A stretch of DNA of 39,303 nucleotides, from contig JAYTGR010000124.1 of NCBI GenBank assembly GCA_043733205.1, positions 1 to 39,303 of the forward strand, read 5' to 3'. The translations under genes were made by a program, and so were the position numbers. This DNA is from Chthonomonadaceae bacterium (GTDB lineage: Bacteria; Armatimonadota; Chthonomonadetes; Chthonomonadales; Chthonomonadaceae). A model generated the notes under the pieces. It saw only the letters and a program-made list of their open reading frames with translations. It ran no database searches and was not told the DNA's origin. Of the stretch, positions 14,083 through 29,116 are shown piece by piece (within the stretch, counting starts at the first letter, position 1; each line of letters opens with the position of its first letter).

Positions 14083-14673
14083 CTACCGTCGCGCGCCCGT
14101 CTTGCCGGCGACGAACTGCAGACCCGTGTTTGCCGCCTGCATCGCCATATTGCCGAATTCGGCGGCGTCATTCATATGGCCGCCCGAATCCTTGCCGAGC
14201 GACTGGAGCTGCTGCATACCTTGTTGGAGCAGCTGCATACCCTGCTGCATCTGCGCATTGCTCGCCGCGATCTGGGACGACGAGTATTTCGACAGCGCCA
14301 TATTGCGGCCCTTCGGAATCTGGGCGGCGCGTACTGAGGCCGTCTGGCGCTGCCCCATGCCTCCATTGACCGAATTTGTGGTGCCGGTCGCGGCCTCGCG
14401 GATCTCTTTGGCCGACAGCTTTGCCAGCTCGATGGCGCGATGCCGATGCCCGTCGTAGATAGGAAGCGCGCTTTCCATGATCTTGGCGGCGTTCTCGAAC
14501 GTCGTGTAAACGCCGACAAGCTGAGAATTGGCCTGTCGCCCACCAGCGCCGTGATGGGGACCGGGGTGTGGCCTGACCACACGCTGGGACTCGGACTGGA
14601 TACCAATGAAAGATATTGCGGCGACGGCTGCTGCCGTCAGATACCAGGATTTGCAGAGGCGTTTCGGACCCAT
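14083..14673 (-). CDS. Small secreted Q/M-rich protein of unknown function.
   Basis: Start at 14673 (MGPKRLCKSWYLTAAAVAAISFIG, signal-like) preceded by AAGGAGAG. The C-terminal part has low complexity (NAQMQQGMQLLQQGMQQLQSLG). It is divergent from the operon at 14843. Confidence 0.55.
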   Translation of the reverse strand: MGPKRLCKSWYLTAAAVAAISFIGIQSESQRVVRPHPGPHHGAGGRQANSQLVGVYTTFENAAKIMESALPIYDGHRHRAIELAKLSAKEIREAATGTTNSVNGGMGQRQTASVRAAQIPKGRNMALSKYSSSQIAASNAQMQQGMQLLQQGMQQLQSLGKDSGGHMNDAAEFGNMAMQAANTGLQFVAGKTGARR

Positions 14674-14842
14674 AGTAAAAATCTCTCCTTCGCTAAAACG
14701 AAATTTACATCGGCACATGACCGATCCACTTCACTGGAATCCGAGACGATCCGATTTGGAGAATGTTCAATAGCTGCAAAGGACGCAGGAGAAAATTTCT
14801 GCTGTGGCGAAATAAGGGAGAAATAGTTAAGGAGGCAGGGTA

Positions 14843-15598
14843 TTGAATCTGGATAGGGCGCTGCAGGAACATGAGGAGCAGGTAGATGCTCTGCTGAAGA
14901 GTGCGAACAAGTATGTCGGGGCATTGAAGGCCTGGAAAAAGGCCTGTCAGATAGGGCATATCGGGAACCTGCAAAAAGCGGCGATGCAGGCCGGAGACTT
15001 GAGCGCTCTGCTGCCCGAAACGACCTCTGAAACGAAGAGCGCCTGGGATTTCGACATACGGGACTATCTCGAAACGGATGCCTGGCTGAAGGAGCTGCAG
15101 GCGGCTGCGGCGGAGCACTTCAGCCTGCGTACGCTCGAAGACGATGAGACGCTGATCTCCTCTCCGATCACAGTCCGCGCCCAGCCGGCGCGGAGCACTC
15201 TGGCGCTCGGCAAAGTCAACTGGCCTGCGATCCGTCCGAAAGTAGTTGCTGCCGAACTCAAGCGCCTGAGAGACCGCACTGCCGGCGCCAACTCGCAGGA
15301 GTTTGCCGAAAGCCTCTACGGTGCGTGCGTGCATCTGAGCAGTCAGAACGATCCCCATGCGCGCTTCCGCGACATCTATGACGTGTTCTGCCTGACACCC
15401 GGATACAAGAAAGAGAACCCGCCTGCCGCGTTCGGACAGCAGCTCTATGCCCTGCATCGGTCCGAAATCAAACGGACACGCGCGGGGCGCAGATTCGAGA
15501 TCGAGTATGCCACCGGCAGCTACAAAGAGAAAGACGTCTTTACCGTTCTCTCCGAAGACGGCCGCCCCATCCGCTACTTCAACATCTTCTTCAAATAG
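14843..15598 (+). CDS. Hypothetical protein, first gene of the BrxD-like/SNF2 operon.
   Basis: 251 aa. TTG start 7 nt after a perfect AAGGAGG (14829-14835). The N-terminal ~95 aa look helical or coiled-coil (LDRALQEHEEQVDALLKSANKYVGALKAWKKA...). The C-terminal half has basic patches (KRLRDR, IKRTRAGRRFEIEY). I recognise no domain. The next gene starts 17 nt after its stop. Confidence 0.7.
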   Translation: MNLDRALQEHEEQVDALLKSANKYVGALKAWKKACQIGHIGNLQKAAMQAGDLSALLPETTSETKSAWDFDIRDYLETDAWLKELQAAAAEHFSLRTLEDDETLISSPITVRAQPARSTLALGKVNWPAIRPKVVAAELKRLRDRTAGANSQEFAESLYGACVHLSSQNDPHARFRDIYDVFCLTPGYKKENPPAAFGQQLYALHRSEIKRTRAGRRFEIEYATGSYKEKDVFTVLSEDGRPIRYFNIFFK

Positions 15599-15615
15599 AC
15601 AAGGAACCTCATCAG

Positions 15616-16728
15616 ATGGCAGATACGCTTCCCGCCTTGTCGCTGGAGGACTGGCTGGCGACGATAGAGTACGAGTATTTGGCGGACTATATCCGGTCGG
15701 GCGGTTCGGCGGTCAAAGTCATTTCGGGATCGGATGCGCAGCTGCAGCGAGTCACCGCCCGTGTGCAGGAGATGGCCGCTTCCGCGGACTATTTTACGGC
15801 CCATCTCGACCCAGCGGTGCCGGATAAGATGGGCAAACGCCCTGATCTCCACCGCATTGATCGCTTCTTCTTTCAGGTCACGCAGGAGGTCGATTGGAAA
15901 GCCTGGGCCGCCATGCAGGCGCAGCAGTATCTGGAAAGCCGGGGTATCCATCTGGCCGCAGGCCGCGCGCTCGGCGACCTGGAACAGATCGCGCTCGACA
16001 ACGGTCGGGATCCACTGGACCTGCTCAACCAGTATCAGCGGGAACTGGCAACGCTGCAGATACGCGATCCTCGGCTTTCAATCGAGTTCCGTACCGCCGT
16101 CACCGCACTGGGGCGCGCACTGCTCATTCCCGATGCCGTCACACCGACGTCTGAAGAGGTGCTGCTGGGCTGGTTCGCCGGGCAGGCGCTGCCCGGTGCC
16201 TCCTCCGCACTGAAAAAGGTGCAGATCTACGAACGGATCAATCTCGCGAACGCACGCCCTATGCTGGTATCGTTCTGTCACTGGCTGCCGCAGACCGGTC
16301 ATGCCGGCCTGGTCGTCACTCTCGATTTTCGCCCCTATGAGTTCAAGAAGATCGCCAAGGGCAAGCGGCAGGCCGAGCAGCTGCAGAAGGTGCGGGACGC
16401 CCTCGTGCGCGGCGCCTCCTCGGAGGAGCTGACACTGTTGGCCCAGGAGCACGAAAGCGCGGAGCCGGAACTCTTCTACAGCGACGCCGCCTATATGCAG
16501 ATGCTGACGCTGATCCGGCGGTTCATCGACGAGATAGACCGGTTCGACCGGTTTCTCCTGGTGATCCTGACCAGTCCCAATTTCTACAAAGACAAGACGC
16601 TCGACCCGACCGTGAAGCGCTGTTATTTTGATTACGACGCACTGCAGACCCGCATCGGGCAGGAGGTGCATGACGCCCGTTATGCGAATCCCGCCGCATC
16701 GCTCGTGCAGCTGGGAGGCGCCGAATGA
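15616..16728 (+). CDS. BrxD/DUF2791-like protein with a degenerate (non-canonical) P-loop.
   Basis: 370 aa, with AAGGAA upstream. The N-terminal layout (DWLATIEYEYLADYIRSGGSAVKVISGSDAQL) resembles the region where DUF2791 ATPases carry GxxGxGKS/T, but the Lys-Ser/Thr is missing. The Walker-B-like strand GLVVTLDFRPYE lacks the DE pair. Its stop overlaps the next start (ATGA at 16725-16728). The family assignment is from memory of the DUF2791 pattern and has not been searched. Confidence 0.6.
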   Translation: MADTLPALSLEDWLATIEYEYLADYIRSGGSAVKVISGSDAQLQRVTARVQEMAASADYFTAHLDPAVPDKMGKRPDLHRIDRFFFQVTQEVDWKAWAAMQAQQYLESRGIHLAAGRALGDLEQIALDNGRDPLDLLNQYQRELATLQIRDPRLSIEFRTAVTALGRALLIPDAVTPTSEEVLLGWFAGQALPGASSALKKVQIYERINLANARPMLVSFCHWLPQTGHAGLVVTLDFRPYEFKKIAKGKRQAEQLQKVRDALVRGASSEELTLLAQEHESAEPELFYSDAAYMQMLTLIRRFIDEIDRFDRFLLVILTSPNFYKDKTLDPTVKRCYFDYDALQTRIGQEVHDARYANPAASLVQLGGAE

Positions 16729-17951
16729 ACCCGGAAATGGTTGAGGCGCGAAGCGCCATCGAATCGCTGCGTTCCGGGGTGCCAAGCCGAGACGTCGTCG
16801 CGCAGCTGGGAACGACGCAGCACGATGTGCGTGAGCGTTTCGAGGAGTCGCTGGATGCACTCGCGGCAGGCAAGGGCGTGAGCCCGATCCTCATTTCGGC
16901 GACCTTCGGCGCGGGCAAGACGCATCTGCTCAACTATCTGCAGACGATTGCAGAGCGGGAGGGGTTCGTCACCAGTTATGTCGTGATCAGCCCGGAGATG
17001 CCGTTGGGCAATGGGCATCTGGTCGTGAAAGCCCTCTCCGAAGCCGCCGCTGCACCGGGACAGACTGGGAAGGCGATACGCGCTCTGGCGGCAGGACTCC
17101 GTACCGATTCGGATGCCTACAAAGAGCTGCAGACCTGGGCGCGGAACGCGACGATAGACGACCGGTTCCGCGCACTGCTCCATCTCTACGAGGCCTTCCG
17201 CGCCGACGAAGAGTTTCGGGTGCAGATTCTCAACGACTTCGAGGGCCGCGCGATCCTGAAGACCATCCTCAAAAACCGTCTGAAGCAGATCAGTCAGGCC
17301 GCCGCCTACGATCTGAGCGGCCCGCGCAGCGCCTTTCTGGCCCATGACCGAGTCCGTCTGCTGGCACAGTTCTTCCGGGCAAGCGGCTGCAAGGGGTGGG
17401 TGGTGCTGTTCGATGAAATGGAGCGTGTCGCGAAGTTCTCGCTCAATCAGCGGCTGGCGGCCTACGCGGAACTGGGCTGGTGGCGCGAAGCAGCAGAAAT
17501 GGCCGGCAGTGCGCTCCTTCCGATCTTCACGACGGCCAGTGGCTTCATCACCGAGTCGGTCACGGGCGGCACACACGATGAGCAGCGGCTGAGTTCCGGC
17601 GGGTTCGGGCAGGACGAATACGATCGGCAGGCGCGGTATGGGATCGACCTGCTCAAAGCGCCCTATCGACTGGAATCGCCGACACAGGAGCAGGAAAAGG
17701 AGATCGAATACCGGGTCAAAGCGATCTACGAAGCGGCGTACGGCGTGACAGTCCCTCTGCTGCGGGAAGCGCGCGCGGATGTCCGCACCTCGATCCGCTC
17801 GGAGATGCGCCGCTGGATCACCCTGTGGGATCTGCACCGTTACTACCCGTCTTATCAGGCGGAAGTGAGCGTAGAGACGATGCATTTCGACCCGACTGCC
17901 ATCGCCGACACGGACATCGTGCCGGACGAAGAAGACGAAACGCGGGAGTAG
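16725..17951 (+). CDS. BrxD/DUF2791-family P-loop ATPase.
   Basis: 408 aa. Family-typical N-terminus AIESLRSGVPSRDVVAQLGTTQHDVRERF. Walker A SATFGAGKTHLLNYL (about 16908-16925). Walker B GWVVLFDEMERV (about 17400-17423). GGGAGG lies 7 nt upstream of the ATG. Confidence 0.8.
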   Translation: MNPEMVEARSAIESLRSGVPSRDVVAQLGTTQHDVRERFEESLDALAAGKGVSPILISATFGAGKTHLLNYLQTIAEREGFVTSYVVISPEMPLGNGHLVVKALSEAAAAPGQTGKAIRALAAGLRTDSDAYKELQTWARNATIDDRFRALLHLYEAFRADEEFRVQILNDFEGRAILKTILKNRLKQISQAAAYDLSGPRSAFLAHDRVRLLAQFFRASGCKGWVVLFDEMERVAKFSLNQRLAAYAELGWWREAAEMAGSALLPIFTTASGFITESVTGGTHDEQRLSSGGFGQDEYDRQARYGIDLLKAPYRLESPTQEQEKEIEYRVKAIYEAAYGVTVPLLREARADVRTSIRSEMRRWITLWDLHRYYPSYQAEVSVETMHFDPTAIADTDIVPDEEDETRE

Positions 17952-17954
17952 CCT

Positions 17955-18491
17955 GTGCCGGTCCCTTATCGCAAAACCCCCCGCGCCGCCGAGGTCGGTC
18001 AGGCCGCCTTTCTGGACATCCTCTATCTGCCCGCAGAGCATGTCTTCTACGGCGGCCTGCTGATCCTCGACGGCAAAGGACAGCCGCAGGAGTTCGTACA
18101 CAACACGCTGGCTGCGCCTTCCGGCCTGCTCTGGCCGGAGGACAAGGTGCGCTCTCTGGGCACCGTCATGCTGGCGCACTCCCTGTTCGATGCCTGCCGA
18201 CGCGAACCCGATTTGCTTGTCAGCCTGCCCACGCTCGGCTCGCCGGAAACGTGCCGCACCGAACTCGCTCCTTCTATTCCGTTCGTTCAGGTCGCCCCTG
18301 CCGAGGCGGGCATTCCTGCGGAATGGAACTGGATCAACGAGCCGCCCACTTCCGGGATGCGTGCGGCCATCCTGGCGCAGGAGCTGGCGCGGCGGGGCTT
18401 TATCGTCGAGCCATTCGAGCGGCTGCGGTATGCGCTCCGAATAGTCTATCCGCAAGCCTCGTGGCACGAGGTCGAGAAGGATGGAGTTTAG
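17955..18491 (+). CDS. Hypothetical protein, fourth gene of the operon.
   Basis: 178 aa. GTG start 3 nt after the preceding TAG, with GGGAG upstream. I recognise no motif (FLDILYLPAEHVFYGGLLILDGKGQPQEFVH...). Its 3' end overlaps the SNF2 start by 11 nt. Confidence 0.6.
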   Translation: MPVPYRKTPRAAEVGQAAFLDILYLPAEHVFYGGLLILDGKGQPQEFVHNTLAAPSGLLWPEDKVRSLGTVMLAHSLFDACRREPDLLVSLPTLGSPETCRTELAPSIPFVQVAPAEAGIPAEWNWINEPPTSGMRAAILAQELARRGFIVEPFERLRYALRIVYPQASWHEVEKDGV

Positions 18492-20145
18492 CCTGGGGGT
18501 CGTGAAGCGCGAGAAGGTCGGCGCGTTCCGGCAGGGTGTTTCCGGCTGTCTTGAAGTCGGGGCCTGGGATCTTGGCCGCGCCATTCGGCATACTGTCGGC
18601 TGGTTCGACTACGACACCCTGGACGATCCCACACTGGCCGGAGGGGAGACGGCGGAGGGCGACGGCACGCAGGCGCCTCTCTCCGATGCGGCCGACCTCA
18701 TGCGGCTGCTGGCTGCTGCCCTGCAGCCTCCTCTCACCGCCCTGGTGACGCCGGACGGGGTGCTGGAGTGGCCTGCTCCCCTGCTGCCCTATCAGCGGGA
18801 AGGGGTGCTGGCGCTGCTCTCCCGCCGCGCGCTGCTGCTCGCCGACAGCATGGGACTTGGCAAAACGATTCAAGCCATCGCTGCGCTGCGCATTCTGATC
18901 CATCAGGGCCAGACCGAGGCGGCGCTGATCGTCTGCCCGGCCTCCCTGCTGACGCAGTGGCGGCGGGAACTGGCCCGCTGGGCGCCAGAACTGAAAGTCG
19001 TGCCCGTGGCCGGCAGCCCGGTGGAACGCGGCCGTCTCTGGCAGATTCCGGCCCACATCAAGCTGATCGGTTACGAGACACTGCGTGCGGATGTGATGGA
19101 TCTGCGGGACAGCCCGGCGCTGCAGAAACCGTGGGGCGTCGTGATTCTGGACGAAGCCTCGCGCATCAAGAACCGCCGCTCGACCGTCTCCATCGCCTGC
19201 AAGCGTGTTCCGCGTGAACGGCGCTGGGCGCTGACCGGCACCCCGCTCGAAAACAGCCTCGAAGATGTCGCCTCGCTCCTCGACTTCCTGCTCCTGGAAC
19301 CGAATTCGCCTCCTCCGCAGCCGCTCGCGCAGGCCGAACTCAAAGCGCAGCTTTTCGCCAATCAGCTGCGGCGTCGGAAAGAGGATGTGCTGCCCGAACT
19401 CCCGCCAAAACGGATCAACGATGTCACGATCGAACTGCCGGCTCGACAGCGCGAAGCCTACGACCGCGCCGAACAGGAGGGCATCGTGCAGCTGACCCAG
19501 GCGGCAGGCTCCGTCACGATCGTCCATGTTCTGGAGCTGATCTCGCGGCTCAAGCAGCTGTGCAACTACGACCCCGTCAGCGGCGAGTCGGGCAAACTGT
19601 CGGACATTCTGGAGCGGATGCGCACCCTGGTCGCCGAAGGCCAGCGCGCCCTCGTTTTCTCCCAGTTCACGGACGAGATGTTCGGTGTCCGGCGGCTGGC
19701 CGAAGTCCTGCGCGAGTTTCAGCCGCTGTCGTTCACCGGCAGCATGAGCCTCCGTCAGCGGGCCGAGATCGTCGATCGATTTCTCTCGCACCCGCAGCAC
19801 AAAGCGCTGCTGCTCTCCTTGCGCGCCGGAGCGCAGGGGCTTAACCTCCAGACCGCCTCCTACGTTTTTCACTTCGACCGCTGGTGGAACCCCGCCATCG
19901 AGGAGCAGGCGGACGCCCGCGTGCATCGCATGGGCCAGACCTATCCGGTCACGATCTATCGGTATATCTGCGCCAACACCATCGAAGACCGCATCGACGC
20001 CAAACTCCGCGAGAAACGCCAGATGTTCCAGGATGTGGTGGAGGATGTCAGCCTGGAACTGACCACAGCTCTCTCCGAACGAGAGATCTTCGGTCTGCTG
20101 GGCATCGCCTCTCTCCGCAGCGCACTCAGAGAAGCGACGCGTTAG
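18481..20145 (+). CDS. SNF2/Swi2-family helicase-like ATPase (compact bacterial type).
   Basis: 554 aa. Motif I LLADSMGLGKTIQAIA; Ia LIVCPASLLTQW; II VILDEASRIKN; III ALTGTPLENSLEDVASLLDFL; IV QRALVFSQF; V LLLSLRAGAQGLNLQTASYVFHFDRWWNP; VI EEQADARVHRMGQ. Confidence 0.92.
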   Translation: MEFSLGVVKREKVGAFRQGVSGCLEVGAWDLGRAIRHTVGWFDYDTLDDPTLAGGETAEGDGTQAPLSDAADLMRLLAAALQPPLTALVTPDGVLEWPAPLLPYQREGVLALLSRRALLLADSMGLGKTIQAIAALRILIHQGQTEAALIVCPASLLTQWRRELARWAPELKVVPVAGSPVERGRLWQIPAHIKLIGYETLRADVMDLRDSPALQKPWGVVILDEASRIKNRRSTVSIACKRVPRERRWALTGTPLENSLEDVASLLDFLLLEPNSPPPQPLAQAELKAQLFANQLRRRKEDVLPELPPKRINDVTIELPARQREAYDRAEQEGIVQLTQAAGSVTIVHVLELISRLKQLCNYDPVSGESGKLSDILERMRTLVAEGQRALVFSQFTDEMFGVRRLAEVLREFQPLSFTGSMSLRQRAEIVDRFLSHPQHKALLLSLRAGAQGLNLQTASYVFHFDRWWNPAIEEQADARVHRMGQTYPVTIYRYICANTIEDRIDAKLREKRQMFQDVVEDVSLELTTALSEREIFGLLGIASLRSALREATR

Positions 20146-20303
20146 CAGGAAAGAGTTCGGATAGATCGAAGCCACACTGCAGCGGGTACTAAATGAAAAA
20201 AACGGTCTCTGCTCCGACACAGGGCTGACGATTTGTCGGGCGGCGCGTATATTCCAATGGATTTTCGTGGAGTTCCGTTAGAACAGACAGGAGGACGGCA
20301 GCA

Positions 20304-20584
20304 ATGGCAAAATTGGGATCTGAAAAAATCCGATCATCGTTCGTGTCGCGAACGATGCACAGGGCAAGTATGTGGCACAGCAGTGCACGGAGCACGGATG
20401 GCATTATATTATCGGCATCGAGCCGGACGAACCGGAGGACATCTCCGACCTGGACAAAGCCCTCAATCCGCCGGAACCGTTTCATACCATCAAAATCGGG
20501 CGTAATGAGCCGTGTCCTTGCGGAAGCGGCCGGAAATACAAGCAGTGTTGTGGGAAGGTGGCGAGTACAGAGATGTCCGTCTGA
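20304..20584 (+). CDS. Small SEC-C-motif (CPCGSGxKYKxCC) metal-binding protein, with the reading frame interrupted at an A6 run.
   Basis: The track ORF 20372..20584 starts at a GTG with no SD and ends [21 protein letters not shown]. The same frame is open back to 20324 and already looks protein-like ([16 protein letters not shown]...). A strong AGGAGGA + ATG at 20304 (MAKLGSEK) sits in the neighbouring frame. The two frames join if the run A(20323-20328) had one more A. Confidence 0.55.
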
Positions 20585-20664
20585 TCCGTCAGTGGTCTGC
20601 GTCTTTTGAAGCGGCGTAACATCGCTGTGGCGTGTCGCGTCTAACCAGGCAGGAGGAACCTGCA

Positions 20665-21372
20665 ATGACCCGACATGAGGCACTAATATTTCTGGGATCT
20701 GCTGCTCTGACGGTAGCAGTCGTTGGGTGTTCTGTGACAGCAATGTCGCAAACGCCCTCGGACGACGCTCAGAAGCAGAGGGCGCTGGACAAGGCGCTGA
20801 TAAAGGCGATCCGCGGCCGCAATGCGAAAGCAGTCCGGGATTTGCTCGGCAGGGGAGCGGATGCCAATGCCCAGGATCTCGATGCCAAGCCCGACCGGCG
20901 CGGCACCGTACAGCCGCCCTTAAACATAGAGAAACCCACGGCGCTTCTGATCGTGTTCGACGATGCACAGATCTGGGCCGCCAAAGGACAGCATCACGCG
21001 CGGCCCTATACGCTCCGTCCCGACCCCTCCGAGATTGTCAAAGCCCTTCTCGACAAGGGAGCCGATCCCAACGTCAGCGATTACGACCGTACTTTTCCTC
21101 TGCTCGAAGCGGTCCGGTACCAGTATGCGGCCTCGGTTCGCCTGCTCCTGCAGCACCATGCCAACCCTAATCAGACCTGGGTACATGGCATAACGCCCCT
21201 GCATACCGCCGTCAGCAGCAAGGATGTTCCGATGGTCAAAGCCCTGCTTGCGGCGGGAGCGGATCCGAAGTCACAATCTGCATTCGACAACCCCGCGCAC
21301 CCGCTCGCCGCTGAAGTCGCAGATCTGCTCAAAACGGCCCACAATCCGCCGGCTAACGGCGCCGCACACTAA
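20665..21372 (+). CDS. Ankyrin-repeat lipoprotein.
   Basis: ATG 20665 lies 7 nt after AGGAGGA. MTRHEALIFLGSAALTVAVVGCS (lipobox VVGC). Ankyrin repeats are visible in LIKAIRGRNAKAVRDLLGRGADANAQD, VKALLDKGADPNVSD, LLEAVRYQYAASVRLLLQHHANPN and TPLHTAVSSKDVPMVKALLAAGADP. Confidence 0.8.
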   Translation: MTRHEALIFLGSAALTVAVVGCSVTAMSQTPSDDAQKQRALDKALIKAIRGRNAKAVRDLLGRGADANAQDLDAKPDRRGTVQPPLNIEKPTALLIVFDDAQIWAAKGQHHARPYTLRPDPSEIVKALLDKGADPNVSDYDRTFPLLEAVRYQYAASVRLLLQHHANPNQTWVHGITPLHTAVSSKDVPMVKALLAAGADPKSQSAFDNPAHPLAAEVADLLKTAHNPPANGAAH

Positions 21373-21479: not shown

Positions 21480-23111
21480 TCACTGTTCGGAAGGGGTGGG
21501 GAGCTGAGACTGCCACATCGTCCAGTTGCCGTTGAACAGGCGGGGCGGTCCGTCCGGCTCGAACAGAAGCAGCTGCGTGGTGACCTTATCCAAAAAGAAA
21601 CGGTCGTGACTGACTACGACAACGGCTCCCGGAAAGTGGATCAGCGCCTGCTCCATCACCTGGGTGCTGGCCAGATCCAGGTGATTGGTGGGCTCGTCCA
21701 GGATCAAGACCTGTGCGCCGGAGAGCAGACACTGCGCCAGGGCGACCCGCGCTTTCTGTCCGCCGGAGAGGGTGCCGATTCGCTGCTGCAGATCCATCTC
21801 GGAAAACTGCAGGAGGGAGAGAAAGCGGTTCACCTGTTTGCGCTGCGCCTGTCCGGCCATGCTGAACTGCCCCCCAGCTGTGTTGACGGCGTGGGAGACG
21901 GTATCCTTCAGGTCGAGATCTCTTGCAGCGGCGTTGAAATCGGAGAAGGTGACGCCGCGTTCCCACACGACTTTGCCGGATGTGGGGGGCTCCTCGCCCG
22001 TCAGCAGGCGCAGCAGCGTAGACTTGCCGCTCCCATTGGGGCCGATCACTCCCAGCCGCTCACCCTTCGCGATCTCCAGAGTGACGTCTGCAAAGAGGCT
22101 GTTTTCGCCGTAACCGTGGGCGACCTCTTCCACACGGCACAGCCGGTCGGGGATGCGCAGGCCCTGGTAGATACTGGTGATGATGGTGTCCACCGGTCGC
22201 GGGATGCGGCGCTTCCGAATGTCCGCCAGTTTCCGATGCAGGTTATCGCTGGGATTACGGGCCAGCTCTTCGCGGTCGGACGCGGCTTCGCCTTCGAGCG
22301 TCAGCAGCTCTTCCTCATGTTCGAACTGCCGCTCCAGGCTCTTGATCCGGAAGGGTTTGGTGCGCACATAGTGGGTGTAGTTGCCGGGATAGTCGTGCAG
22401 GTGATAGTTTTCCACTTCGACGACACGGGTTACGACTTTGTCCAGGAACTGCCTGTCGTGCGAGACCAGGAGCAGTCCGCCCCGGTAGTCGCGCAGCCAC
22501 GCTTCCAGCCAGGCCAGACCGGCCACGTCCAGAAAGTTGGTCGGCTCATCCAGGAGCAGCACATCGGGCTGTTCCAGCAGAATCCGCGCCAGCGACGCGC
22601 GAATACGCCATCCGCCCGAAAGCTCGTCGATCGGCTGGCTGCGGCGTGCTGCACTGAACCCCAGCTTGGTCAGTACGGTATCGATCTGGCGCGGATAGTC
22701 CCACCCGCCCCGCCGCTCCATCTCCTCCAGCAGGTGCGCCTGCCGGTCGATCATCACGGTCATCTCGTCCATGTCCGTGACGGTCTGCAGCGCCAGGCCG
22801 ATCTGGTCCAGTTCGGATTCGACGGCCCGCAGATCGGCGAACAGCGCCTCCAGCACCTGCTGAATGGAGGCAGCGCCTTTGAGATCGGAGAACTGGGAAA
22901 AGTAGCCCAGTCGGACGCCCTGGGTGACGTCCACGTCGCCTTCATCCGGATCCTCCTGACCCAGAATCAGGCGGAGGAGGGTCGTCTTGCCCGCACCGTT
23001 TCTGCCGAGCAGGCCGACCCGCTCCCCTGCGCGAAGGCGGAACGAGACATCGCGTAAGACCAGACGTTCGTCGTAACGCTTGGTGACACGGCTGATACGT
23101 ACAAGGCTCAT
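21480..23111 (-). CDS. ABC-F family ATPase (two ABC cassettes, no transmembrane domain).
   Basis: 543 aa. Walker A GRNGAGKTTLL and GPNGSGKSTLL. Signatures LSGGWRIR and LSGGQKAR. Walker B LLLDEPTNFLD and LILDEPTNHLD. Confidence 0.9.
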   Translation of the reverse strand: MSLVRISRVTKRYDERLVLRDVSFRLRAGERVGLLGRNGAGKTTLLRLILGQEDPDEGDVDVTQGVRLGYFSQFSDLKGAASIQQVLEALFADLRAVESELDQIGLALQTVTDMDEMTVMIDRQAHLLEEMERRGGWDYPRQIDTVLTKLGFSAARRSQPIDELSGGWRIRASLARILLEQPDVLLLDEPTNFLDVAGLAWLEAWLRDYRGGLLLVSHDRQFLDKVVTRVVEVENYHLHDYPGNYTHYVRTKPFRIKSLERQFEHEEELLTLEGEAASDREELARNPSDNLHRKLADIRKRRIPRPVDTIITSIYQGLRIPDRLCRVEEVAHGYGENSLFADVTLEIAKGERLGVIGPNGSGKSTLLRLLTGEEPPTSGKVVWERGVTFSDFNAAARDLDLKDTVSHAVNTAGGQFSMAGQAQRKQVNRFLSLLQFSEMDLQQRIGTLSGGQKARVALAQCLLSGAQVLILDEPTNHLDLASTQVMEQALIHFPGAVVVVSHDRFFLDKVTTQLLLFEPDGPPRLFNGNWTMWQSQLPTPSEQ

Positions 23112-23192
23112 GACGGCACCGCGAACATATTTTTAGACATAGACAGAGTATACCAGTCCCGAGGATCGGATTCGACTGACTCGTTTAGCAGG

Positions 23193-26100
23193 TCACTTCC
23201 CTAATTTCAGGCTGTTCTTCGCGAGCAGCGCTTTGAAGGCGGCGAGATCGGCGCTCTTGAGCAGTTCCCAGCTCTTTGTGGTCTTCTGGAGATCGGACGC
23301 GGTGGCGGCGCAGGACTTGCGGATGGCGTCGCTGGGCGTCATATCTCCGGAGTCGAGCGTGTTGATCTGGCGGTCGGCGGCGCTGTTGATCGCATTGAAC
23401 GAGCGCAGCGCGGGCGGTGCGCCCGCAGCGCCGGGACTGCCTCCTCCTCCTGGGCGTCGGCCGAACCCAGCTGTGCCACCGAGTGCCGCGAGTTTGGTGT
23501 CGAGCGCCTTCGCGACTGTGACAACGTCTGCCGGCGGACTGGCTGCGAGGAGCGCCGTGAGGGACGCCCGGATGTCCGCGATCTGATGATAGCAGTCCCA
23601 GGACTCCTGTGCGCAGCGGCAGAGAATCATCTGGAGATCGTGCTGCTCCCGCAGGTCACCGGCAGAGGCGGGTGAACGGGGATCGTTCTTCACCGTCACG
23701 GTCTGTGTGGAGGTTTTGCCGTTTGCGGTGAGCGTCAGCGTGTAGACACCGGGCAGTGCGAGCGGACCCTCCGGCGAAGGGGGCGTCTGTCCAGGGTTCG
23801 CATTGATCTCGTATGTGTGGCTGAAGGCAGGCGGGCTGTCGCAGCGCAGGTTCCAGTTCGTCCGGTTGAGTCCGACGGCAGTCGGCAGAGGCGAGGGCTT
23901 CTCCACCCAGAAATCCGGCACAGGCGGCGGCCCTTCGGCGAGGGCGGGAACTGCCGCACTGGAGAGATGACGCACGATGTGCCCGTGCGCATCCCGAACG
24001 TCCAGGGTGATGTCTCCTGCAGGAGGGGAGCCAAGATAGTAGTAGAGGATAGCTCCCATCGGCGCGTTTTCGGCGTGGGGAATCTCCGGTGGGAAGGGCG
24101 TGCCGCCGTTCACGTTGCGGCGGACGCGGGTCGCAGCGGCGGCTTTGAACAGATGCACCGGTTCCGAGGCGACCGACGATGTGACCTGGCGCAGCGGCGA
24201 GATGTCGTCGAGGATCCAGAAGCCGCGCCCGTAGGTTCCGACCACGAGGTCGTTGTCTTTGACGATCATATCGCGATACGAGGTGTCCGGCAGGTTCAGC
24301 ATGAGGCTCTGCCAGTGGTCGCCGTCGTCGAAGGAGACGCAGACGGAGCTTTCGGTGCCGGCAAAGAGCAGGCCCGCCCGCTTCGTGTCTGCCCGAATGA
24401 CACGCGCAAAGCTGCCTCCCGCCTGATCTTCCGGCAGACCGGCAACGATCTGCGTCCAGGTTTTGCCGAAGTCGTGTGTGCGGTAGAAATAGGGCTTGTA
24501 GTCGCCCGCACCGTGGCAGTCCACGGCGGCATAGGCTGTGCCGGTGTCCAGGTGCGACGCGTCGAGGGCAGAAATGTCCGCGCGGGTGGGGCTGGGAAGA
24601 TCGGGAATGGTGACGTCGTCCCACGTAAGCCCATGGTCGCGCGAGAGTTTGATCAGGCCGTTGCTGGTGCCCACCCAGATCACGTTCCCATTGACACTGG
24701 AGGCCGAGATCGATTCGATGGCGCCGCCGCCCAGCGCCCGCTGGTTTTCGCGCTCCTCCTCATTCCCTCCTGTGGCGTCGTCATTGTCATCGGCGGCGTC
24801 TTCGTCCAGCGGCGACTGGCTGCCGGGCGGGACGGCCGCTGCCGGGCGGGCGGGAGCCGTGCGTGCGGGCGTTGGCAGGGCGGGCACTTCGCCGGGTTTC
24901 AGGGTCAGATCGGGGCTGATTTTGCGCCAGCGCCTGCCTCCGTCGGTGGTCGCCATCAGGTACTGGAATCCGGCATAAAGCTCGTGCGGATCGGTGCGCG
25001 AGAAGAGAAGCGGCTGGTTGCCGACCTTGCGGAGCGCGAGGCTGGAATCCAGGTTGGGGCTGACATCGATCCACTGACCGCTGGGGTAGGTCGTCTTGAC
25101 GATGCCTCCGCCGGGGCCTCCCGCATAGCTCACCTTCGGGTTCAGGGGATCGGCGACGATGGAGCCGAACTCGTAGCCGGGGTGCGGCAGCCAATCGAGG
25201 GGGGTGATGGCGCCCAGGTTGCCCCGACTGCTGGTGGCGATCGACCCGCTGTCCTGCTGCGTGCCGTAGACCCAGTAGGGGAACTGGTTGTCCACCGAGA
25301 TATGATAGACCTGCACGGTGGACTGGTTGTACCAGGAGCTCCAGTTCAGGCCGCCGTCGAGCGAGATGGTCGCGCCCTGGTCGGTTCCGAAACAGAGGCG
25401 CCTGCCGTCGGCCGGGTCGATCCACAGCTGCTGCGGATCGTCGCCGCCCGGAGCGCCCTTAAAGCCGGTGAAGGTTTTGCCGCCATCGGTGGACCGGTAG
25501 CAGCAGGTGTTGACGACGTAGACGATGTCGGGGTTCTGCGGATCCACGTAGACGCCGCAGTTGTAGCCGCCCTGTCCGTTGCCGACTCGGCGGTCGGCGG
25601 CGTCCATGTGCCTCCAGCTGCTGCCGCCGTCGTCCGAGCGGTACAGGCCGAAATTCCCCACGATATACATGCGTTTGGAGTTGGTGTTCATGGCGATCGC
25701 GACGGAGGTTCGGCCGGTGATCTCCGGCAGCGTGTCGCTCTCCATCAGCTTCCAGGTCAGGCCCTCATCGCTGGATTTGTAGAGTCCGCCGGTCTGTGCC
25801 GCGCGCTGTCCGGGCGCGCCTCCTCCTGCACCTGCACCTCCGCCGCCGCGGGGCTGTCCGGGCGCGTTGTAGTAGTGCATCGTGGTGGCGAGCATCACGT
25901 TCGGGTGATCGTAGTCCCAGGTGATCTTCTGAACGCCGGTCTCATCGTCGATACGCAGGGTTCTTACCCACGTTTTCCCCCCATCCGTACTGCGGTAGAG
26001 GCCCCGCGCATCGGATTTGGCGCCGATCGGCCCCTGTGCGGCCACCATGACGAGATTGGGGTCGTGCGGGTCCACGAGAATCGAAGGGATATGCTCGGTC

Positions 26101-26528
26101 TTGTTCAGTCCGATATGCTGCCAGGTTGCGCCCGCATCCGTGGACTTATAGACGCCGTTGCCCCGGTTGATTCCTCCGCCGGTCAGCATGTCGCCCATCC
26201 CGACGTAGATCACCTTCGGATCGGAGGGGGCGACCTGGACTGCGCCCACCGACGAGACCTCCTTGACGGAGTCGAACACGGGATACCAGGTCGCACCCGC
26301 GCTGGTGGTTTTCCAGACGCCGCCCAATGGCAGGCCCATGTAGTAGACGCCCGGCTGCCCGACCACACCGCTCACGGCGGAGACACGCCCGCCTCGGAAC
26401 GGACCGATATTGCGCCAGACTAGTCCAGAATAGAGGTTCTCCGGGAGAGTCTGCGCCCCTGTCGATGTACAGAGCGCGGCGAGAGTCAAAAAGAGTGCAG
26501 AAAAACGAAGCCGGGTAAAACAGTTCAT
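23193..26528 (-). CDS. Secreted sortilin/VPS10-type BNR (Asp-box) repeat protein.
   Basis: Start MNCFTRLRFSALFLTLAALCTSTGAQT at 26528, with AAGGA upstream. Repeated Asp-boxes: STDAGATW, STDGGKTW, SSDEGLTW, SDDGGSSW, STDGGKTF, SLDGGLNW, TTDGGRRW, SRDHGLTW, THDFGKTW and SFDDGDHW. The size and layout are typical of the ~1100-aa two-propeller family. Confidence 0.85.
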   Translation of the reverse strand: MNCFTRLRFSALFLTLAALCTSTGAQTLPENLYSGLVWRNIGPFRGGRVSAVSGVVGQPGVYYMGLPLGGVWKTTSAGATWYPVFDSVKEVSSVGAVQVAPSDPKVIYVGMGDMLTGGGINRGNGVYKSTDAGATWQHIGLNKTEHIPSILVDPHDPNLVMVAAQGPIGAKSDARGLYRSTDGGKTWVRTLRIDDETGVQKITWDYDHPNVMLATTMHYYNAPGQPRGGGGAGAGGGAPGQRAAQTGGLYKSSDEGLTWKLMESDTLPEITGRTSVAIAMNTNSKRMYIVGNFGLYRSDDGGSSWRHMDAADRRVGNGQGGYNCGVYVDPQNPDIVYVVNTCCYRSTDGGKTFTGFKGAPGGDDPQQLWIDPADGRRLCFGTDQGATISLDGGLNWSSWYNQSTVQVYHISVDNQFPYWVYGTQQDSGSIATSSRGNLGAITPLDWLPHPGYEFGSIVADPLNPKVSYAGGPGGGIVKTTYPSGQWIDVSPNLDSSLALRKVGNQPLLFSRTDPHELYAGFQYLMATTDGGRRWRKISPDLTLKPGEVPALPTPARTAPARPAAAVPPGSQSPLDEDAADDNDDATGGNEEERENQRALGGGAIESISASSVNGNVIWVGTSNGLIKLSRDHGLTWDDVTIPDLPSPTRADISALDASHLDTGTAYAAVDCHGAGDYKPYFYRTHDFGKTWTQIVAGLPEDQAGGSFARVIRADTKRAGLLFAGTESSVCVSFDDGDHWQSLMLNLPDTSYRDMIVKDNDLVVGTYGRGFWILDDISPLRQVTSSVASEPVHLFKAAAATRVRRNVNGGTPFPPEIPHAENAPMGAILYYYLGSPPAGDITLDVRDAHGHIVRHLSSAAVPALAEGPPPVPDFWVEKPSPLPTAVGLNRTNWNLRCDSPPAFSHTYEINANPGQTPPSPEGPLALPGVYTLTLTANGKTSTQTVTVKNDPRSPASAGDLREQHDLQMILCRCAQESWDCYHQIADIRASLTALLAASPPADVVTVAKALDTKLAALGGTAGFGRRPGGGGSPGAAGAPPALRSFNAINSAADRQINTLDSGDMTPSDAIRKSCAATASDLQKTTKSWELLKSADLAAFKALLAKNSLKLGK

Positions 26529-27003
26529 ACGGGTTGTCCTTGGGGCGGGAGATGAATGGGAACAGCAGCAACCCTGTATCAGGATGTCGTGCCGAACGAT
26601 AAGTCTTTCACTCATCGATAAGGCGATGAGGGGAGCTGCCTTTGAGCGAAGGACTTCAATGTCGCGCGCTGGGATATGGACCGCTTTGCGGTTCAGTTAT
26701 GAAAAATTATACCCCCATCACCGCATTCTAAGGAACAATTTGGTCTTTCGCACGAGATTTCTTCCTCTGTCCAATCAAGCGATTTCGCCGGCTTGTTCCC
26801 GCGAAAAAATCGGACTTTCAACCTGGGGTATCATAGAGTATTGCGGTGAGAGGGAAGGGACGTGATGACAGCGGCCACACCGTGTATAAATAAAGAGACA
26901 TCGGGCCAGGTAAAATTTATCGCCGTATCAAGGCGCGCCTGGGGGCGCTGACAGCTTCCTTTTGGCGGCGAGGCAGGCTACGGTGGGAGCGAACGAGGAA
27001 ATT

Positions 27004-28740
27004 ATGGCTCAAGCACACGAAACAGACGGAAACACGACGCCTTCGGACCCGAAGACGGAGCGGCGTGAAATGCAGACAGACTATCTCCGCGAAGCGATCA
27101 AGGAGGATCTGCGTATCGGCAGATTCGACCACGTCCACACGCGGTTCCCGCCGGAGCCGAATGCGTACCTCCACATCGGGCATGCAAAAGCCCTGTGGAT
27201 CAACTACGGCATTGCGCTCGATTTCGGCGGCAAATTCAACCTGCGATTCGACGATACAAACCCCCTGCGCGAAGAGCAGGAGTTCGTAGACGGAATTATC
27301 GAAGATGTTTGCTGGCTCGGCGTCGACTGGGAAGACCGGCTCTGTTTTGCCTCAGACTATTTCGAGCAGATGTACGACTGGGCGGTCGACCTGATCCGCA
27401 AGGGCAAGGCATACGTATGCGATCTCACTGCAGAAGAGGTGAGCGCCACCCGAGGCACACTCACCAGTCCCGGTACGGACAGCCCCTACCGGAATCGCAG
27501 TGCGGAAGACAATCTTGACCTCTTCGCGCGCATGCGGGCCGGCGAGTTTCCCGATGGCACGAGGACGCTGCGCGCGAAAATCGACATGACTGCGCCGAAC
27601 ATGATCCTGCGCGACCCGGTCATGTACCGCATCCTGCATGCCAAACATCACCGTCAGGGAGATAAGTGGAGCCTCTATCCGATGTATGACTGGGCGCACG
27701 GCCTCGAGGACTCTATCGAGGGAGTCACACACTCGCTCTGCTCACAGGAGTACGAGATCCACCGCCCGCTCTACGACTGGTTTCTGGATGAACTCGGCAT
27801 CTATCATCCCCGCCAGATCGAGTTTGCCCGTTTGAATCTCTACTACACGGTGATGAGTAAGCGCAGATTCATCGAGCTGGTGAATGGCGGCTGCGTGGAG
27901 GGATACGACGATCCCAGGCTTCCGACGCTGGCAGGACTGCGCCGCCGGGGCTATACGCCCGAAGCTATTCGGGATTTTTGCCGCCGAATTGGAGTCTCGA
28001 AGACGGACAGCCTCGTGGATGTCGCGATGCTGGAGGACTGTGTCCGGGAGGATCTCAACAGACACTCTCTGCGGGCGATGGCGGTGCTGGATCCGGTGAA
28101 AGTGGTGCTGGTGAACTACCCGGAGGGGCAGACGGAGGAGTTGGATGTGATCAACAACCCGGAGGATCCCGATGCCGGAACGCGCAAAGTGCCCTTTTCG
28201 CGCGAACTGTACATCGAGCGCGATGACTTTCGCGAAGATCCGCCGCCCAAGTTCTTTCGACTGGCCCCCGGCCGCGAGGTGCGACTGCGGAACGCCTACT
28301 TCATCCGCTGTGAAGAGGTTGTGAAGGACGCGAACGGAACCGTGACGGAACTGCGCTGCACTTACGATCCTCAGACGCGGGGCGGCGACGCGCCGGACGG
28401 CCGGAAAGTGAAGTCCACCCTGCACTGGGTCGCCGCGCCGACCGCGGTATCGGCGGAGATTCGCCTCTACGAGCATCTGTTCGTGAAACCCAGCCCGGAC
28501 GATGTGGAACCCGGACAGAACTACATCGCAAACCTCAATCCCAACTCACTGCGTGTGGTGTCGGGCGTGGTCGAACCCAGCCTAGCGGCGGCTGCGGCGG
28601 GAGCGCGTTATCAGTTCGAGCGGCTGGGGTACTTCTGCGCAGACGCGTCCTCGACGCCTGCAGCCCCAGTCTTCCATCGAACCGTTACCCTGCGGGATAC
28701 CTGGGCCAAGATCGATAAGGCGTCGCGACCGGGGCAGTAA
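27004..28740 (+). CDS. glnS: Glutamine--tRNA ligase.
   Basis: Start ATG 27004 after GAGGAA (internal Met of ORF 26962..28740). Class-I motifs: [19 protein letters not shown] (HIGH) and VMSKRR (KMSKS). Also NLRFDDTNP, and a C-terminal anticodon-binding region ending YQFERLGYF. Confidence 0.95.
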
Positions 28741-28819: not shown

Positions 28820-28829
28820 GTCTATATGT

Positions 28830-28902
28830 TGCCGGATAGCTCAGTTGGTAGAGCGACTGTCTCTGGATCAGTAGGTCCAAGGTTCGAATCCTTGTCTGGC
28901 AG
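28830..28902 (+). tRNA. tRNA-Gln (anticodon CTG).
   Basis: Manual cloverleaf. Acceptor TGCCGGA/TCTGGCA with a U1:A72 pair and G73, both hallmarks of bacterial tRNA-Gln. D arm GCTC-AGTTGGTA-GAGC. Anticodon arm ACTGT-CTCTGGA-TCAGT (loop C-T-CTG-G-A). T arm CAAGG-TTCGAAT-CCTTG. No encoded CCA. Confidence 0.92.
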
Positions 28903-28920
28903 TTCTTCCCGAAAATAGAT

Positions 28921-28955: not shown

Positions 28956-29116
28956 ATTTCACGATGGGACTAAATTGCAAATAGGTGTGAAGGCGCTCCC
29001 TCGTAGGCGAACGACACCATGCTATAATGTGGAGGCATCGAATGGCCTTTTCCAGATACGGTAACATTCGGTGCTCTCTCAACGGACTGTCCGCACTCCG
29101 AAAGGAATCGAACCCT

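Follow-up and report, generated by a model that had tools for sequence, protein, structure and literature searches.

Does a compact five-gene operon that matches no named system take part in the defence of its host against foreign DNA, and how might its parts act together? This question is raised by a 39,303-nucleotide stretch of contig JAYTGR010000124.1 (assembly GCA_043733205.1) from a bacterium of the Chthonomonadaceae. The whole stretch is referred to here as the window, and the five genes are designated g1 to g5 in their order along the forward strand. The core of the operon consists of g1, the dead ATPase g2, the live ATPase g3 and the SNF2-type protein g5. The nuclease-type parts that accompany this core are exchangeable and comprise g4, an Mrr_cat domain fused to g5 or an embedded Uma2 gene; otherwise an unrelated protein or nothing is found in their place. 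From sequence comparisons, we consider the chances slightly better than even that the operon is an uncharacterised, horizontally moving anti-phage or anti-plasmid module acting on DNA. An initial annotation, made from the letters of the sequence, had proposed an undescribed nucleoside triphosphate-driven DNA-tracking module, probably for defence. That proposal gains support from Mrr fusions, from the fold of g4, from decayed and interrupted copies of the operon and from the defence-island settings of its distant relatives.

The two ATPase-like proteins both match the Pfam family BrxC_BrxD (PF10923) above its gathering threshold of 22.2 bits. For g3, the match has an E-value of 5.6e-20 and a score of 72.1 bits. 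In PADLOC, g3 matches BrxD (2e-14) and, more weakly, the Shango ATPase SngB (2e-7), the latter over g3 residues 8-94 only, while the score against the NCBIfam BrxD model (NF033438) is 53.9 bits and does not reach the equivalog cut-off of 350. No match to g3 was obtained among solved structures. Both nucleotide-binding motifs of g3 are intact, with FGAGKTH as Walker A and VVLFDE as Walker B. All 28 homologues carry the corresponding patterns FGxGK[ST]HL and hhFDE without variation, and distant orthologues keep them too. The initial description of gene 3 as a BrxD-type protein with intact Walker motifs is therefore well founded, and by these motifs g3 is predicted to be an active ATPase of the BrxD/ORC-Cdc6 type.

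The second protein, g2, matches PF10923 with an E-value of 1.5e-7 and 31.1 bits. PADLOC BrxD matches residues 27-237 (3e-7), and the NCBIfam BrxD model gives 2.4e-7 and 30.2 bits, again below the cut-off of 350. In place of a P-loop, g2 carries the sequence GGSxVKxxSG, and the GK[ST] signature is found in none of its 33 homologues. The same replacement is present in distant orthologues of g2. Across the 33 aligned homologues, the strand LVVTLDFRPYE is retained. On this evidence g2 is a predicted member of the BrxD family (ORC/Cdc6-type AAA+) that lacks the Walker A lysine, and it is presumed to be a non-catalytic partner of g3. The dead P-loop that had first been noted in gene 2 is thus a property of the whole set of homologues. 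The accompanying suggestion that gene 2 is a paralogue of gene 3 holds by way of the BrxD models, which both proteins match. It does not follow from a direct comparison of the two profiles (hhalign), which aligned 20 columns at the Walker B strand only, with a probability of 4%.

The presence of BrxD-type proteins invites comparison with BREX. BrxD of type 2 BREX has been described as an AAA+ ATPase of the ORC-Cdc6 kind, linked in a dyad with a helicase for which it is the proposed loader (PMC12839542). The operon resembles the BrxD-BrxHI pairs of BREX types 2 (Pgl) and 6 in that a stand-alone PF10923 ATPase of the ORC/Cdc6 type stands beside a superfamily 2 (SF2) helicase. In contrast to the BREX dyad, the module is without PglX, PglZ, BrxC/PglY and PglW, its helicase is SNF2-type and not Lhr/Ski2-like, and it possesses a dead and a live ATPase, an extra g1 family and an RNase H-fold protein, g4. 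BREX systems are recognised by a phosphatase-family protein, PglZ, together with a BrxC/PglY ATPase, and most types add the methyltransferase PglX. Membership in BREX was rejected after a Pfam scan of the five proteins and about 30 further open reading frames (ORFs), which span most of the 39 kb, found no PglZ, PglX or BrxC/PglY among the window genes. Nor were PglX, PglZ or BrxC found beside any of the related loci examined except L081, which has PglY and PglZ.

A looser tie to BREX would be that the operon is a non-autonomous auxiliary, a BrxD with its helicase, which works only with a modification system, of the BREX or another type, whose genes lie elsewhere in the genome. The family membership of g2 and g3 and the linked dyad of type 2 BREX (PMC12839542) are in keeping with this idea, as is L081 (1-14598), where PglY and PglZ are some 5 kb away from a four-gene form of the module. 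A SIR2_2 gene adjoins this form, and a giant SMC-like protein is encoded in the same neighbourhood. L081 may be a composite island, or it may reflect a functional tie to BREX. The idea is nonetheless quite improbable given the absence of partner genes from the scanned window and from the other loci, the distance of the g3 score from the BrxD cut-off, a helicase of a different type, and the lack of any detectable BREX counterpart of g1 and of the dead ATPase.

The motor of the module is g5, which is predicted to be a complete SNF2-family double-stranded DNA translocase. It aligns to positions 1-287 of the 290 in SNF2-rel_dom (PF00176; 6e-48) and to positions 10-110 of the 110 in Helicase_C (PF00271; 4e-18). 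This near-complete coverage agrees with the earlier reading of all seven SNF2 motifs in gene 5. The motifs GLGKT, DEAS, TGTPLEN and QADARVHRMGQ are readable, and the best solved relative is the archaeal (Sulfolobus) Rad54-like core 1z63 (2e-60). The N-terminal region, about 90-100 amino acids long, varies among relatives. At the other end of the protein, an Mrr_cat domain is fused to the C-terminus of the SNF2 protein in the related loci L004, L017, L024 and L037 (Pfam, E 1e-22 to 1e-24).

In its SNF2 core, g5 resembles ZorD, DpdE and DrmD (PADLOC 1.5e-66, 3e-66 and 3e-40, respectively). These matches are limited to the helicase core, which is the C-terminal part of far longer models. ZorD carries an Mrr-type nuclease domain, as do some g5 orthologues, whereas the g5 of the window does not. 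Zorya is defined by the MotAB-like membrane pair ZorA/ZorB, to which type I adds ZorC and ZorD. It was rejected because g5 scores 154.7 bits with NCBIfam ZorD, where the cut-off is 1500, and the scanned window contains no ZorA/B/C family. DISARM, in which DrmD accompanies DrmA, DrmB (DUF1998) and either DrmC or the methyltransferase DrmM, was likewise rejected; the DrmD score is 89 bits where 610 would be required, and the scanned window has no DrmA/B/C/M partners. The Dpd system was also rejected; besides the DpdE-like core of g5, no Dpd partner genes are present in the scanned window.

The gene that precedes the motor, g4, is seen differently after structural modelling. Genes 1 and 4 had initially been set aside as unplaceable, and the operon as a whole had been described as having no recognisable nuclease. 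At the level of sequence families the first view stands, since neither g1 nor g4 has a family in Pfam, PADLOC or NCBIfam, and g4 has no sequence-level similarity to the endonuclease V (EndoV)/UvrC/PIWI branch. At the level of the fold, g4 can be placed, and the statement about nucleases fails. The g4 model is confident (predicted local distance difference test, pLDDT, 87.5; predicted template modelling score, pTM, 0.84), and Foldseek assigns it to the RNase H-like superfamily with a probability of 1.0 and E-values of 2e-6 to 1e-3. The nearest folds are those of EndoV, the C-terminal half of UvrC and Argonaute PIWI (3hd0, 2nrt, 4xpu and 3goc). Specifically, 21 PDB entries match at E<=1e-3, with EndoV and UvrC C-terminal structures on top and template modelling (TM) scores of 0.4-0.56. 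By its modelled fold, though not by sequence similarity, g4 thus belongs to the EndoV/UvrC-C/PIWI branch of RNase H-like proteins.

Homologues of g4 form 180 clusters, and the best 120 of the 180 are 54-100% identical to it. Within this clade the conserved residues are D21 (strand 1), D39, E46, H49, N50, H75, D79, E84, D86 and E103, and the acidic ones among them sit on beta-1 and near alpha-1 and beta-4. A catalytic carboxylate set of the DED type would be expected on beta-1, alpha-1 and beta-4. The model makes g4 a candidate nuclease or nucleic-acid-binding adaptor. The position that it occupies in the operon is variable in relatives. In L080 the slot is filled by a divergent g4 homologue (hhalign probability 98.3%, E 2e-14), and in L076-L079 and L081 g4 is missing and the slot before the SNF2 gene is empty. 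L074 has an unrelated protein of 342 amino acids in this slot. Neither this protein nor the 182-amino-acid protein of L077, nor others like them, has a Pfam match or any similarity to g1 or g4.

The first gene, g1, belongs to a large family of its own. Its homologues form 191 clusters, with the best 120 of the 191 at 54-100% identity, and a profile search extends to 518 clusters (50% identity level) at E<=1e-3, or 315 at E<=1e-10. Ten sampled distant members showed no significant Pfam or PADLOC family. One distant relative matched BrxA marginally (E 0.0097), which was judged to be noise, and profile searches of the g1 N-terminus against PDB sequences returned generic helical-bundle noise only. 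The AlphaFold model of g1 is of moderate quality (pLDDT 77, pTM 0.58) and has no fold match in PDB or BFVD. Its N-terminal part is a bundle of helices and its C-terminal half is of the alpha/beta kind; from about residue 130, the order of helices and strands would fit a winged-helix-like unit. In every module locus, near and distant, g1 is the first gene. From this fixed position and the pattern of its secondary structure, we guess that g1 may bind DNA or act as the sensor of the module.

The distribution of the module indicates how it is inherited. When one genome per species was scanned across 185,579 species, the module was found in 32 genomes, which represent at least four phyla; the scan prefilters by peptide patterns, so that 32 loci is a lower bound. 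Most of the loci are from Armatimonadota (Chthonomonadales, Capsulimonadaceae and Fimbriimonadales). The other hosts are three Planctomycetota, one deltaproteobacterial metagenome-assembled genome (MAG), two UBP9 and one MAG labelled Janthinobacterium. Wherever the contig is long enough, the genes occur in the order g1-g2-g3-g4-g5 and have near-identical lengths. Start and stop codons overlap at the g1-g2 or g2-g3 junction in several relatives, including distant ones, as they do at g2-g3 in the window. The g1 proteins of Planctomycetota are 55-57% identical to that of the window, whereas those of some Chthonomonadales are only 42-46% identical. The similarity of the modules thus cuts across taxonomy, and the sequences point to horizontal spread between phyla.

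The flanking genes differ between loci. Among 124 flanking ORFs of 17 near-clade loci, 194 Pfam families were detected and none of them matched more than three ORFs, which implies that the block travels as a unit, free of particular housekeeping genes. PADLOC identified one Cas3 and one type II methyltransferase among the same ORFs. The neighbourhood of L001, a further near-clade locus, includes PIN-MazE, a nucleotidyltransferase and an AAA_15/21-DUF3696 protein. The initial annotation had considered that homologous blocks might prove universal and syntenic with housekeeping genes. They are neither, given their presence in 32 of 185,579 genomes, their similarity across phyla and their unshared flanks.

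Several copies of the module are interrupted or decayed. A Uma2 gene (PF05685) lies between g2 and g3 in L004 (11991-12593) and in L019 (11849-12451). A Uma2 gene also occurs just downstream of the block in L039 (15416-16015), and others lie within or immediately beside the module in L076 (2574-3170 and 13227-13868) and in L001 (1-274). We take Uma2 to be a family of putative restriction-endonuclease-like proteins. Its recurrence in unrelated lineages could mean that it is a facultative nuclease partner of the module, or merely that it is abundant in these phyla. In L015 (14284-14906), a PemK/MazF toxin gene lies between the g3 and g4 orthologues, and the small ORF just upstream of it may be the antitoxin. 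A fragment weakly similar to an OLD-like TOPRIM domain adjoins this insertion. The copy in L038 (10001-16862) is decayed, with g2 split, g3 cut to 161 amino acids and DUF433 and DUF2335 inserted, while g1, g4 and g5 remain. Frameshifted genes are present in L010, L028 and L035, where assembly errors in the MAGs are possible. Together, the decayed and interrupted copies, the unrelated flanks and the cross-phylum similarity suggest an accessory, transferred element.

The contexts of distant g1 homologues define what is conserved in the module. They contain a g1-like gene, a BrxD-like gene without Walker A, a BrxD-like gene with Walker A and B, and an SNF2 gene, and the SNF2 protein is the best-conserved part. 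Judged from these loci, the conserved unit is one of four genes, with g4 as a facultative fifth. In two loci, L082 (5437-12989) and L083 (1237-8789), a g1-like gene and two BrxD-like genes occur without SNF2. Upstream of them are a divergent DEAD/ResIII helicase, a DprA-like gene (DNA_processg_A/LDcluster4) and a metallophosphatase, and the motor may have been swapped for another in these loci.

Distant copies are found in defence neighbourhoods, among them that of L081 with PglY, PglZ, SIR2 and the giant SMC-like protein. L074 has type I cas genes with Cas4-Cas1 and Cas2 nearby. L078 contains GmrSD, AAA_15/21-DUF3696, HEPN, an SNF2 protein of 1381 amino acids and a DUF4011/MTES_1575 helicase. 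In L080 a tyrosine integrase lies directly upstream of the module, and the surroundings also contain methyltransferases of the Dam and N6 types and a fragment of EcoEI_R_C.

The integrase of L080, the evident horizontal transfer, and the toxin-antitoxin and Uma2 genes that are embedded in or adjacent to the module would be consistent with a module in the service of a mobile element rather than of its host; maintenance, segregation, the exclusion of competitors and counter-defence are examples of what it might do. We regard this as very improbable. No relative was found on viral contigs or in the plasmid collection that was searched, and near the block in the window there are no integrase, transposase or repeat boundaries. 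Moreover, the only tRNA gene of the window is 8.7 kb downstream of the block, and the site is stable in close relatives.

Another possibility is that the operon is an accessory system for DNA repair or transcription-coupled remodelling, in which the SNF2 protein would clear stalled complexes or expose lesions, g4 would incise damaged DNA and the ATPase pair would sense damage or load. The nearest folds of g4 are indeed those of the repair nucleases EndoV and UvrC (C-terminal half). Bacterial SNF2 proteins include RapA-type transcription factors, and the best partial NCBIfam matches of g5 are to SCO1167-family and pilus-regulating Snf2 helicases. Additionally, the neighbourhood in the window is of a housekeeping kind and is stable among close relatives. 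A repair function is unlikely, however, in view of the rare, patchy and cross-phylum distribution, the absence of g4 from many relatives, the fusions to Mrr-type restriction nucleases, the decayed or interrupted copies, and the distant copies that adjoin CRISPR-Cas, GmrSD, BREX and restriction-modification genes.

Returning to defence as the preferred function, the module matches no named anti-phage system as far as the models of PADLOC 2.0, NCBIfam 20.0 (June 2026) and Pfam and the searchable literature can tell. PADLOC, which it had been suggested might assign the block to a named system, yielded generic component matches only, namely BrxD/SngB for g2 and g3 and ZorD/DpdE/DrmD for the SNF2 core, and none for g1 or g4. 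All of the NCBIfam equivalog scores are far below their curated cut-offs. Literature searches on DUF2791, PF10923, BrxD with SNF2, and Shango turned up no account of such a combination of genes. Shango resembles the module as a short operon that pairs a BrxD-like ATPase (SngB) with a helicase (SngC) and lacks a methyltransferase, and its SngB matches the N-terminus of g3. Unlike the module, it contains only the one ATPase and no inactive partner. The defining component of Shango is SngA, a protein with a TerB domain (10.1101/2022.05.11.491447). Neither g1 nor g4 matches TerB or SngA in Pfam and PADLOC at E<=0.1, and assignment to Shango was rejected. No SngC model is among the best 25 of the 46 PADLOC matches of g5.

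The invariant pair of dead and live ATPases, the Mrr_cat fusions and the fold of g4 are parts that fit a DNA-targeting machine, and a mechanism can be outlined for it. ORC/Cdc6-type loaders and the BrxD-BrxHI dyad suggest, by analogy, that g2 and g3 would form a hetero-oligomeric AAA+ assembly. With this assembly, g1 would sense a feature of incoming DNA. The assembly would then spend ATP to load or activate the SNF2 motor, which would track along DNA and deliver g4, or Mrr in the fused relatives, to cut or disable the invader. The absence of a methyltransferase from the module would imply a cue for self and non-self other than host methylation. Candidates for this cue are modified phage bases, unusual DNA structures and DNA ends. 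Recognition of modified bases would resemble type IV restriction, with which the Mrr fusions agree. This specific order of events is less likely than the defence role itself. More broadly, the module might represent a new, methyltransferase-free class of immunity, in which an ORC-like live/dead heteromer, guided by g1 as a protein of previously unseen fold, loads an SNF2 motor of the chromatin-remodeller type onto foreign DNA, with interchangeable nucleases (g4, Mrr or Uma2) coupled to the motor. Such a system would mirror in bacteria, for the purpose of defence, the way in which eukaryotic replication and chromatin remodelling combine a loader with a motor. That proposal is plausible, with a likelihood somewhat short of even.

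A number of observations weigh against a mobile defence module. In the divergent g4 homologue of L080, the beta-1 aspartate D21 and also D39 are replaced, and the g5 of the window itself carries no nuclease domain. Apart from the two PADLOC matches given above, the flanks of the near-clade loci consist mostly of metabolic genes. In the window and in its closest relatives, L006 and L039, ordinary chromosomal genes surround the block, which is seemingly inherited vertically there. The negative result for viral contigs and the searched plasmid collection also counts here, and the role of g1 is a guess from its place in the module and its secondary structure.

The synteny of these three loci can be described more closely. 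L039 shares with the window the upstream genes for Dus, a hybrid kinase, AP_endonuc_2 and GxGYxYP, and the downstream gene for an ABC-F protein. L006 shares an upstream aminotransferase and the downstream ABC-F and BNR proteins. The extra upstream genes, which include a class III aminotransferase, are present in the window and in L006 but not in L039. The stretch between g5 and ABC-F (20189-21372 in the window, 15416-16015 in L039 and 15303-15338 in L006) holds an ankyrin gene in the window and Uma2 in L039, and it is only 47 bp in L006. Compared in this way, genes seem to be gained and lost at either border of the block. In two further close relatives, L041 and L042, the block is not beside ABC-F; both contigs are short and L042 is rearranged. 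In L042 (4360-8161) the ABC-F gene (92% identical) and the BNR/sortilin gene are in the reverse of their order in the window (21512-26682), and the module is not adjacent. Either a local rearrangement or an error of assembly might account for this order.

The layout of the operon itself is compact (Table 1). There is a 17-nt gap between g1 and g2, a 4-nt ATGA overlap between g2 and g3, a 3-nt gap between g3 and g4, and an 11-nt overlap between g4 and g5. Shine-Dalgarno-like elements precede the first four genes (AAGGAGG for g1, AAGGAA for g2, GGGAGG for g3 and GGGAG for g4), while the sole element upstream of g5 is GAGAAGG, which abuts the start. Re-reading the sequence reproduced the ORF coordinates, spacings and ribosome-binding elements of the initial annotation, including the TTG start of g1 after AAGGAGG and the weak element that is confined to g5. 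All five ORFs are genuine genes and not spurious frames of G+C-rich DNA, because each has many conserved homologues. Antisense ORFs across the block, such as that at 16680-18584 (-), were not taken as genes, as such frames are expected at a G+C content of about 62%.

Table 1. Positions in the window of the five genes and of the leader that precedes them.
Feature	Position	Strand	Description
g1	14843-15598	+	251 aa, TTG start
g2	15616-16728	+	370 aa
g3	16725-17951	+	408 aa
g4	17955-18491	+	178 aa, GTG start
g5	18481-20145	+	554 aa
Intergenic leader 5' of g1	14719-14842	+	Holds AAGGAGG Shine-Dalgarno; adjoins divergent gene 14083-14718 (-)

Because the gene upstream of the leader is on the opposite strand, g1 opens the transcription unit. 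A sigma-70 scan of the leader found no site, and sigma-70, terminator and Rfam scans linked no promoter, terminator or Rfam element to the operon. The inverted repeats around the leader are weak ones only. The divergent ORF encodes 211 amino acids without a Pfam family, and its translation may in fact begin with the ATG at 14673, behind a GGAGAG motif.

Two features of the wider window deserve mention. The tRNA gene downstream of the block is a tRNA-Gln (CTG) at 28829-28903, directly 3' of the glutaminyl-tRNA synthetase gene (26962-28740). Ankyrin-repeat proteins, which are uncommon in bacteria, are encoded at 20632-21372 and 29027-31027, and the larger of the two has weak squalene-hopene-cyclase-like repeats in its C-terminal part.

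If the operon is a defence module as proposed, its core parts would lie outside PADLOC 2.0, NCBIfam 20.0 and Pfam, namely the g1 family, an obligatory pair of dead and live ATPases, and an SNF2 motor whose nucleases can be exchanged. It would also offer a simpler setting in which to address how BrxD-type ATPases act on helicases, a question that is still open in type 2 BREX, and it would show how a system free of methyltransferases tells foreign DNA from its own. In addition, the g1 and g4 families are candidates for new family definitions, which would help to annotate the genomes of Armatimonadota, Planctomycetota and further phyla that have received little study.

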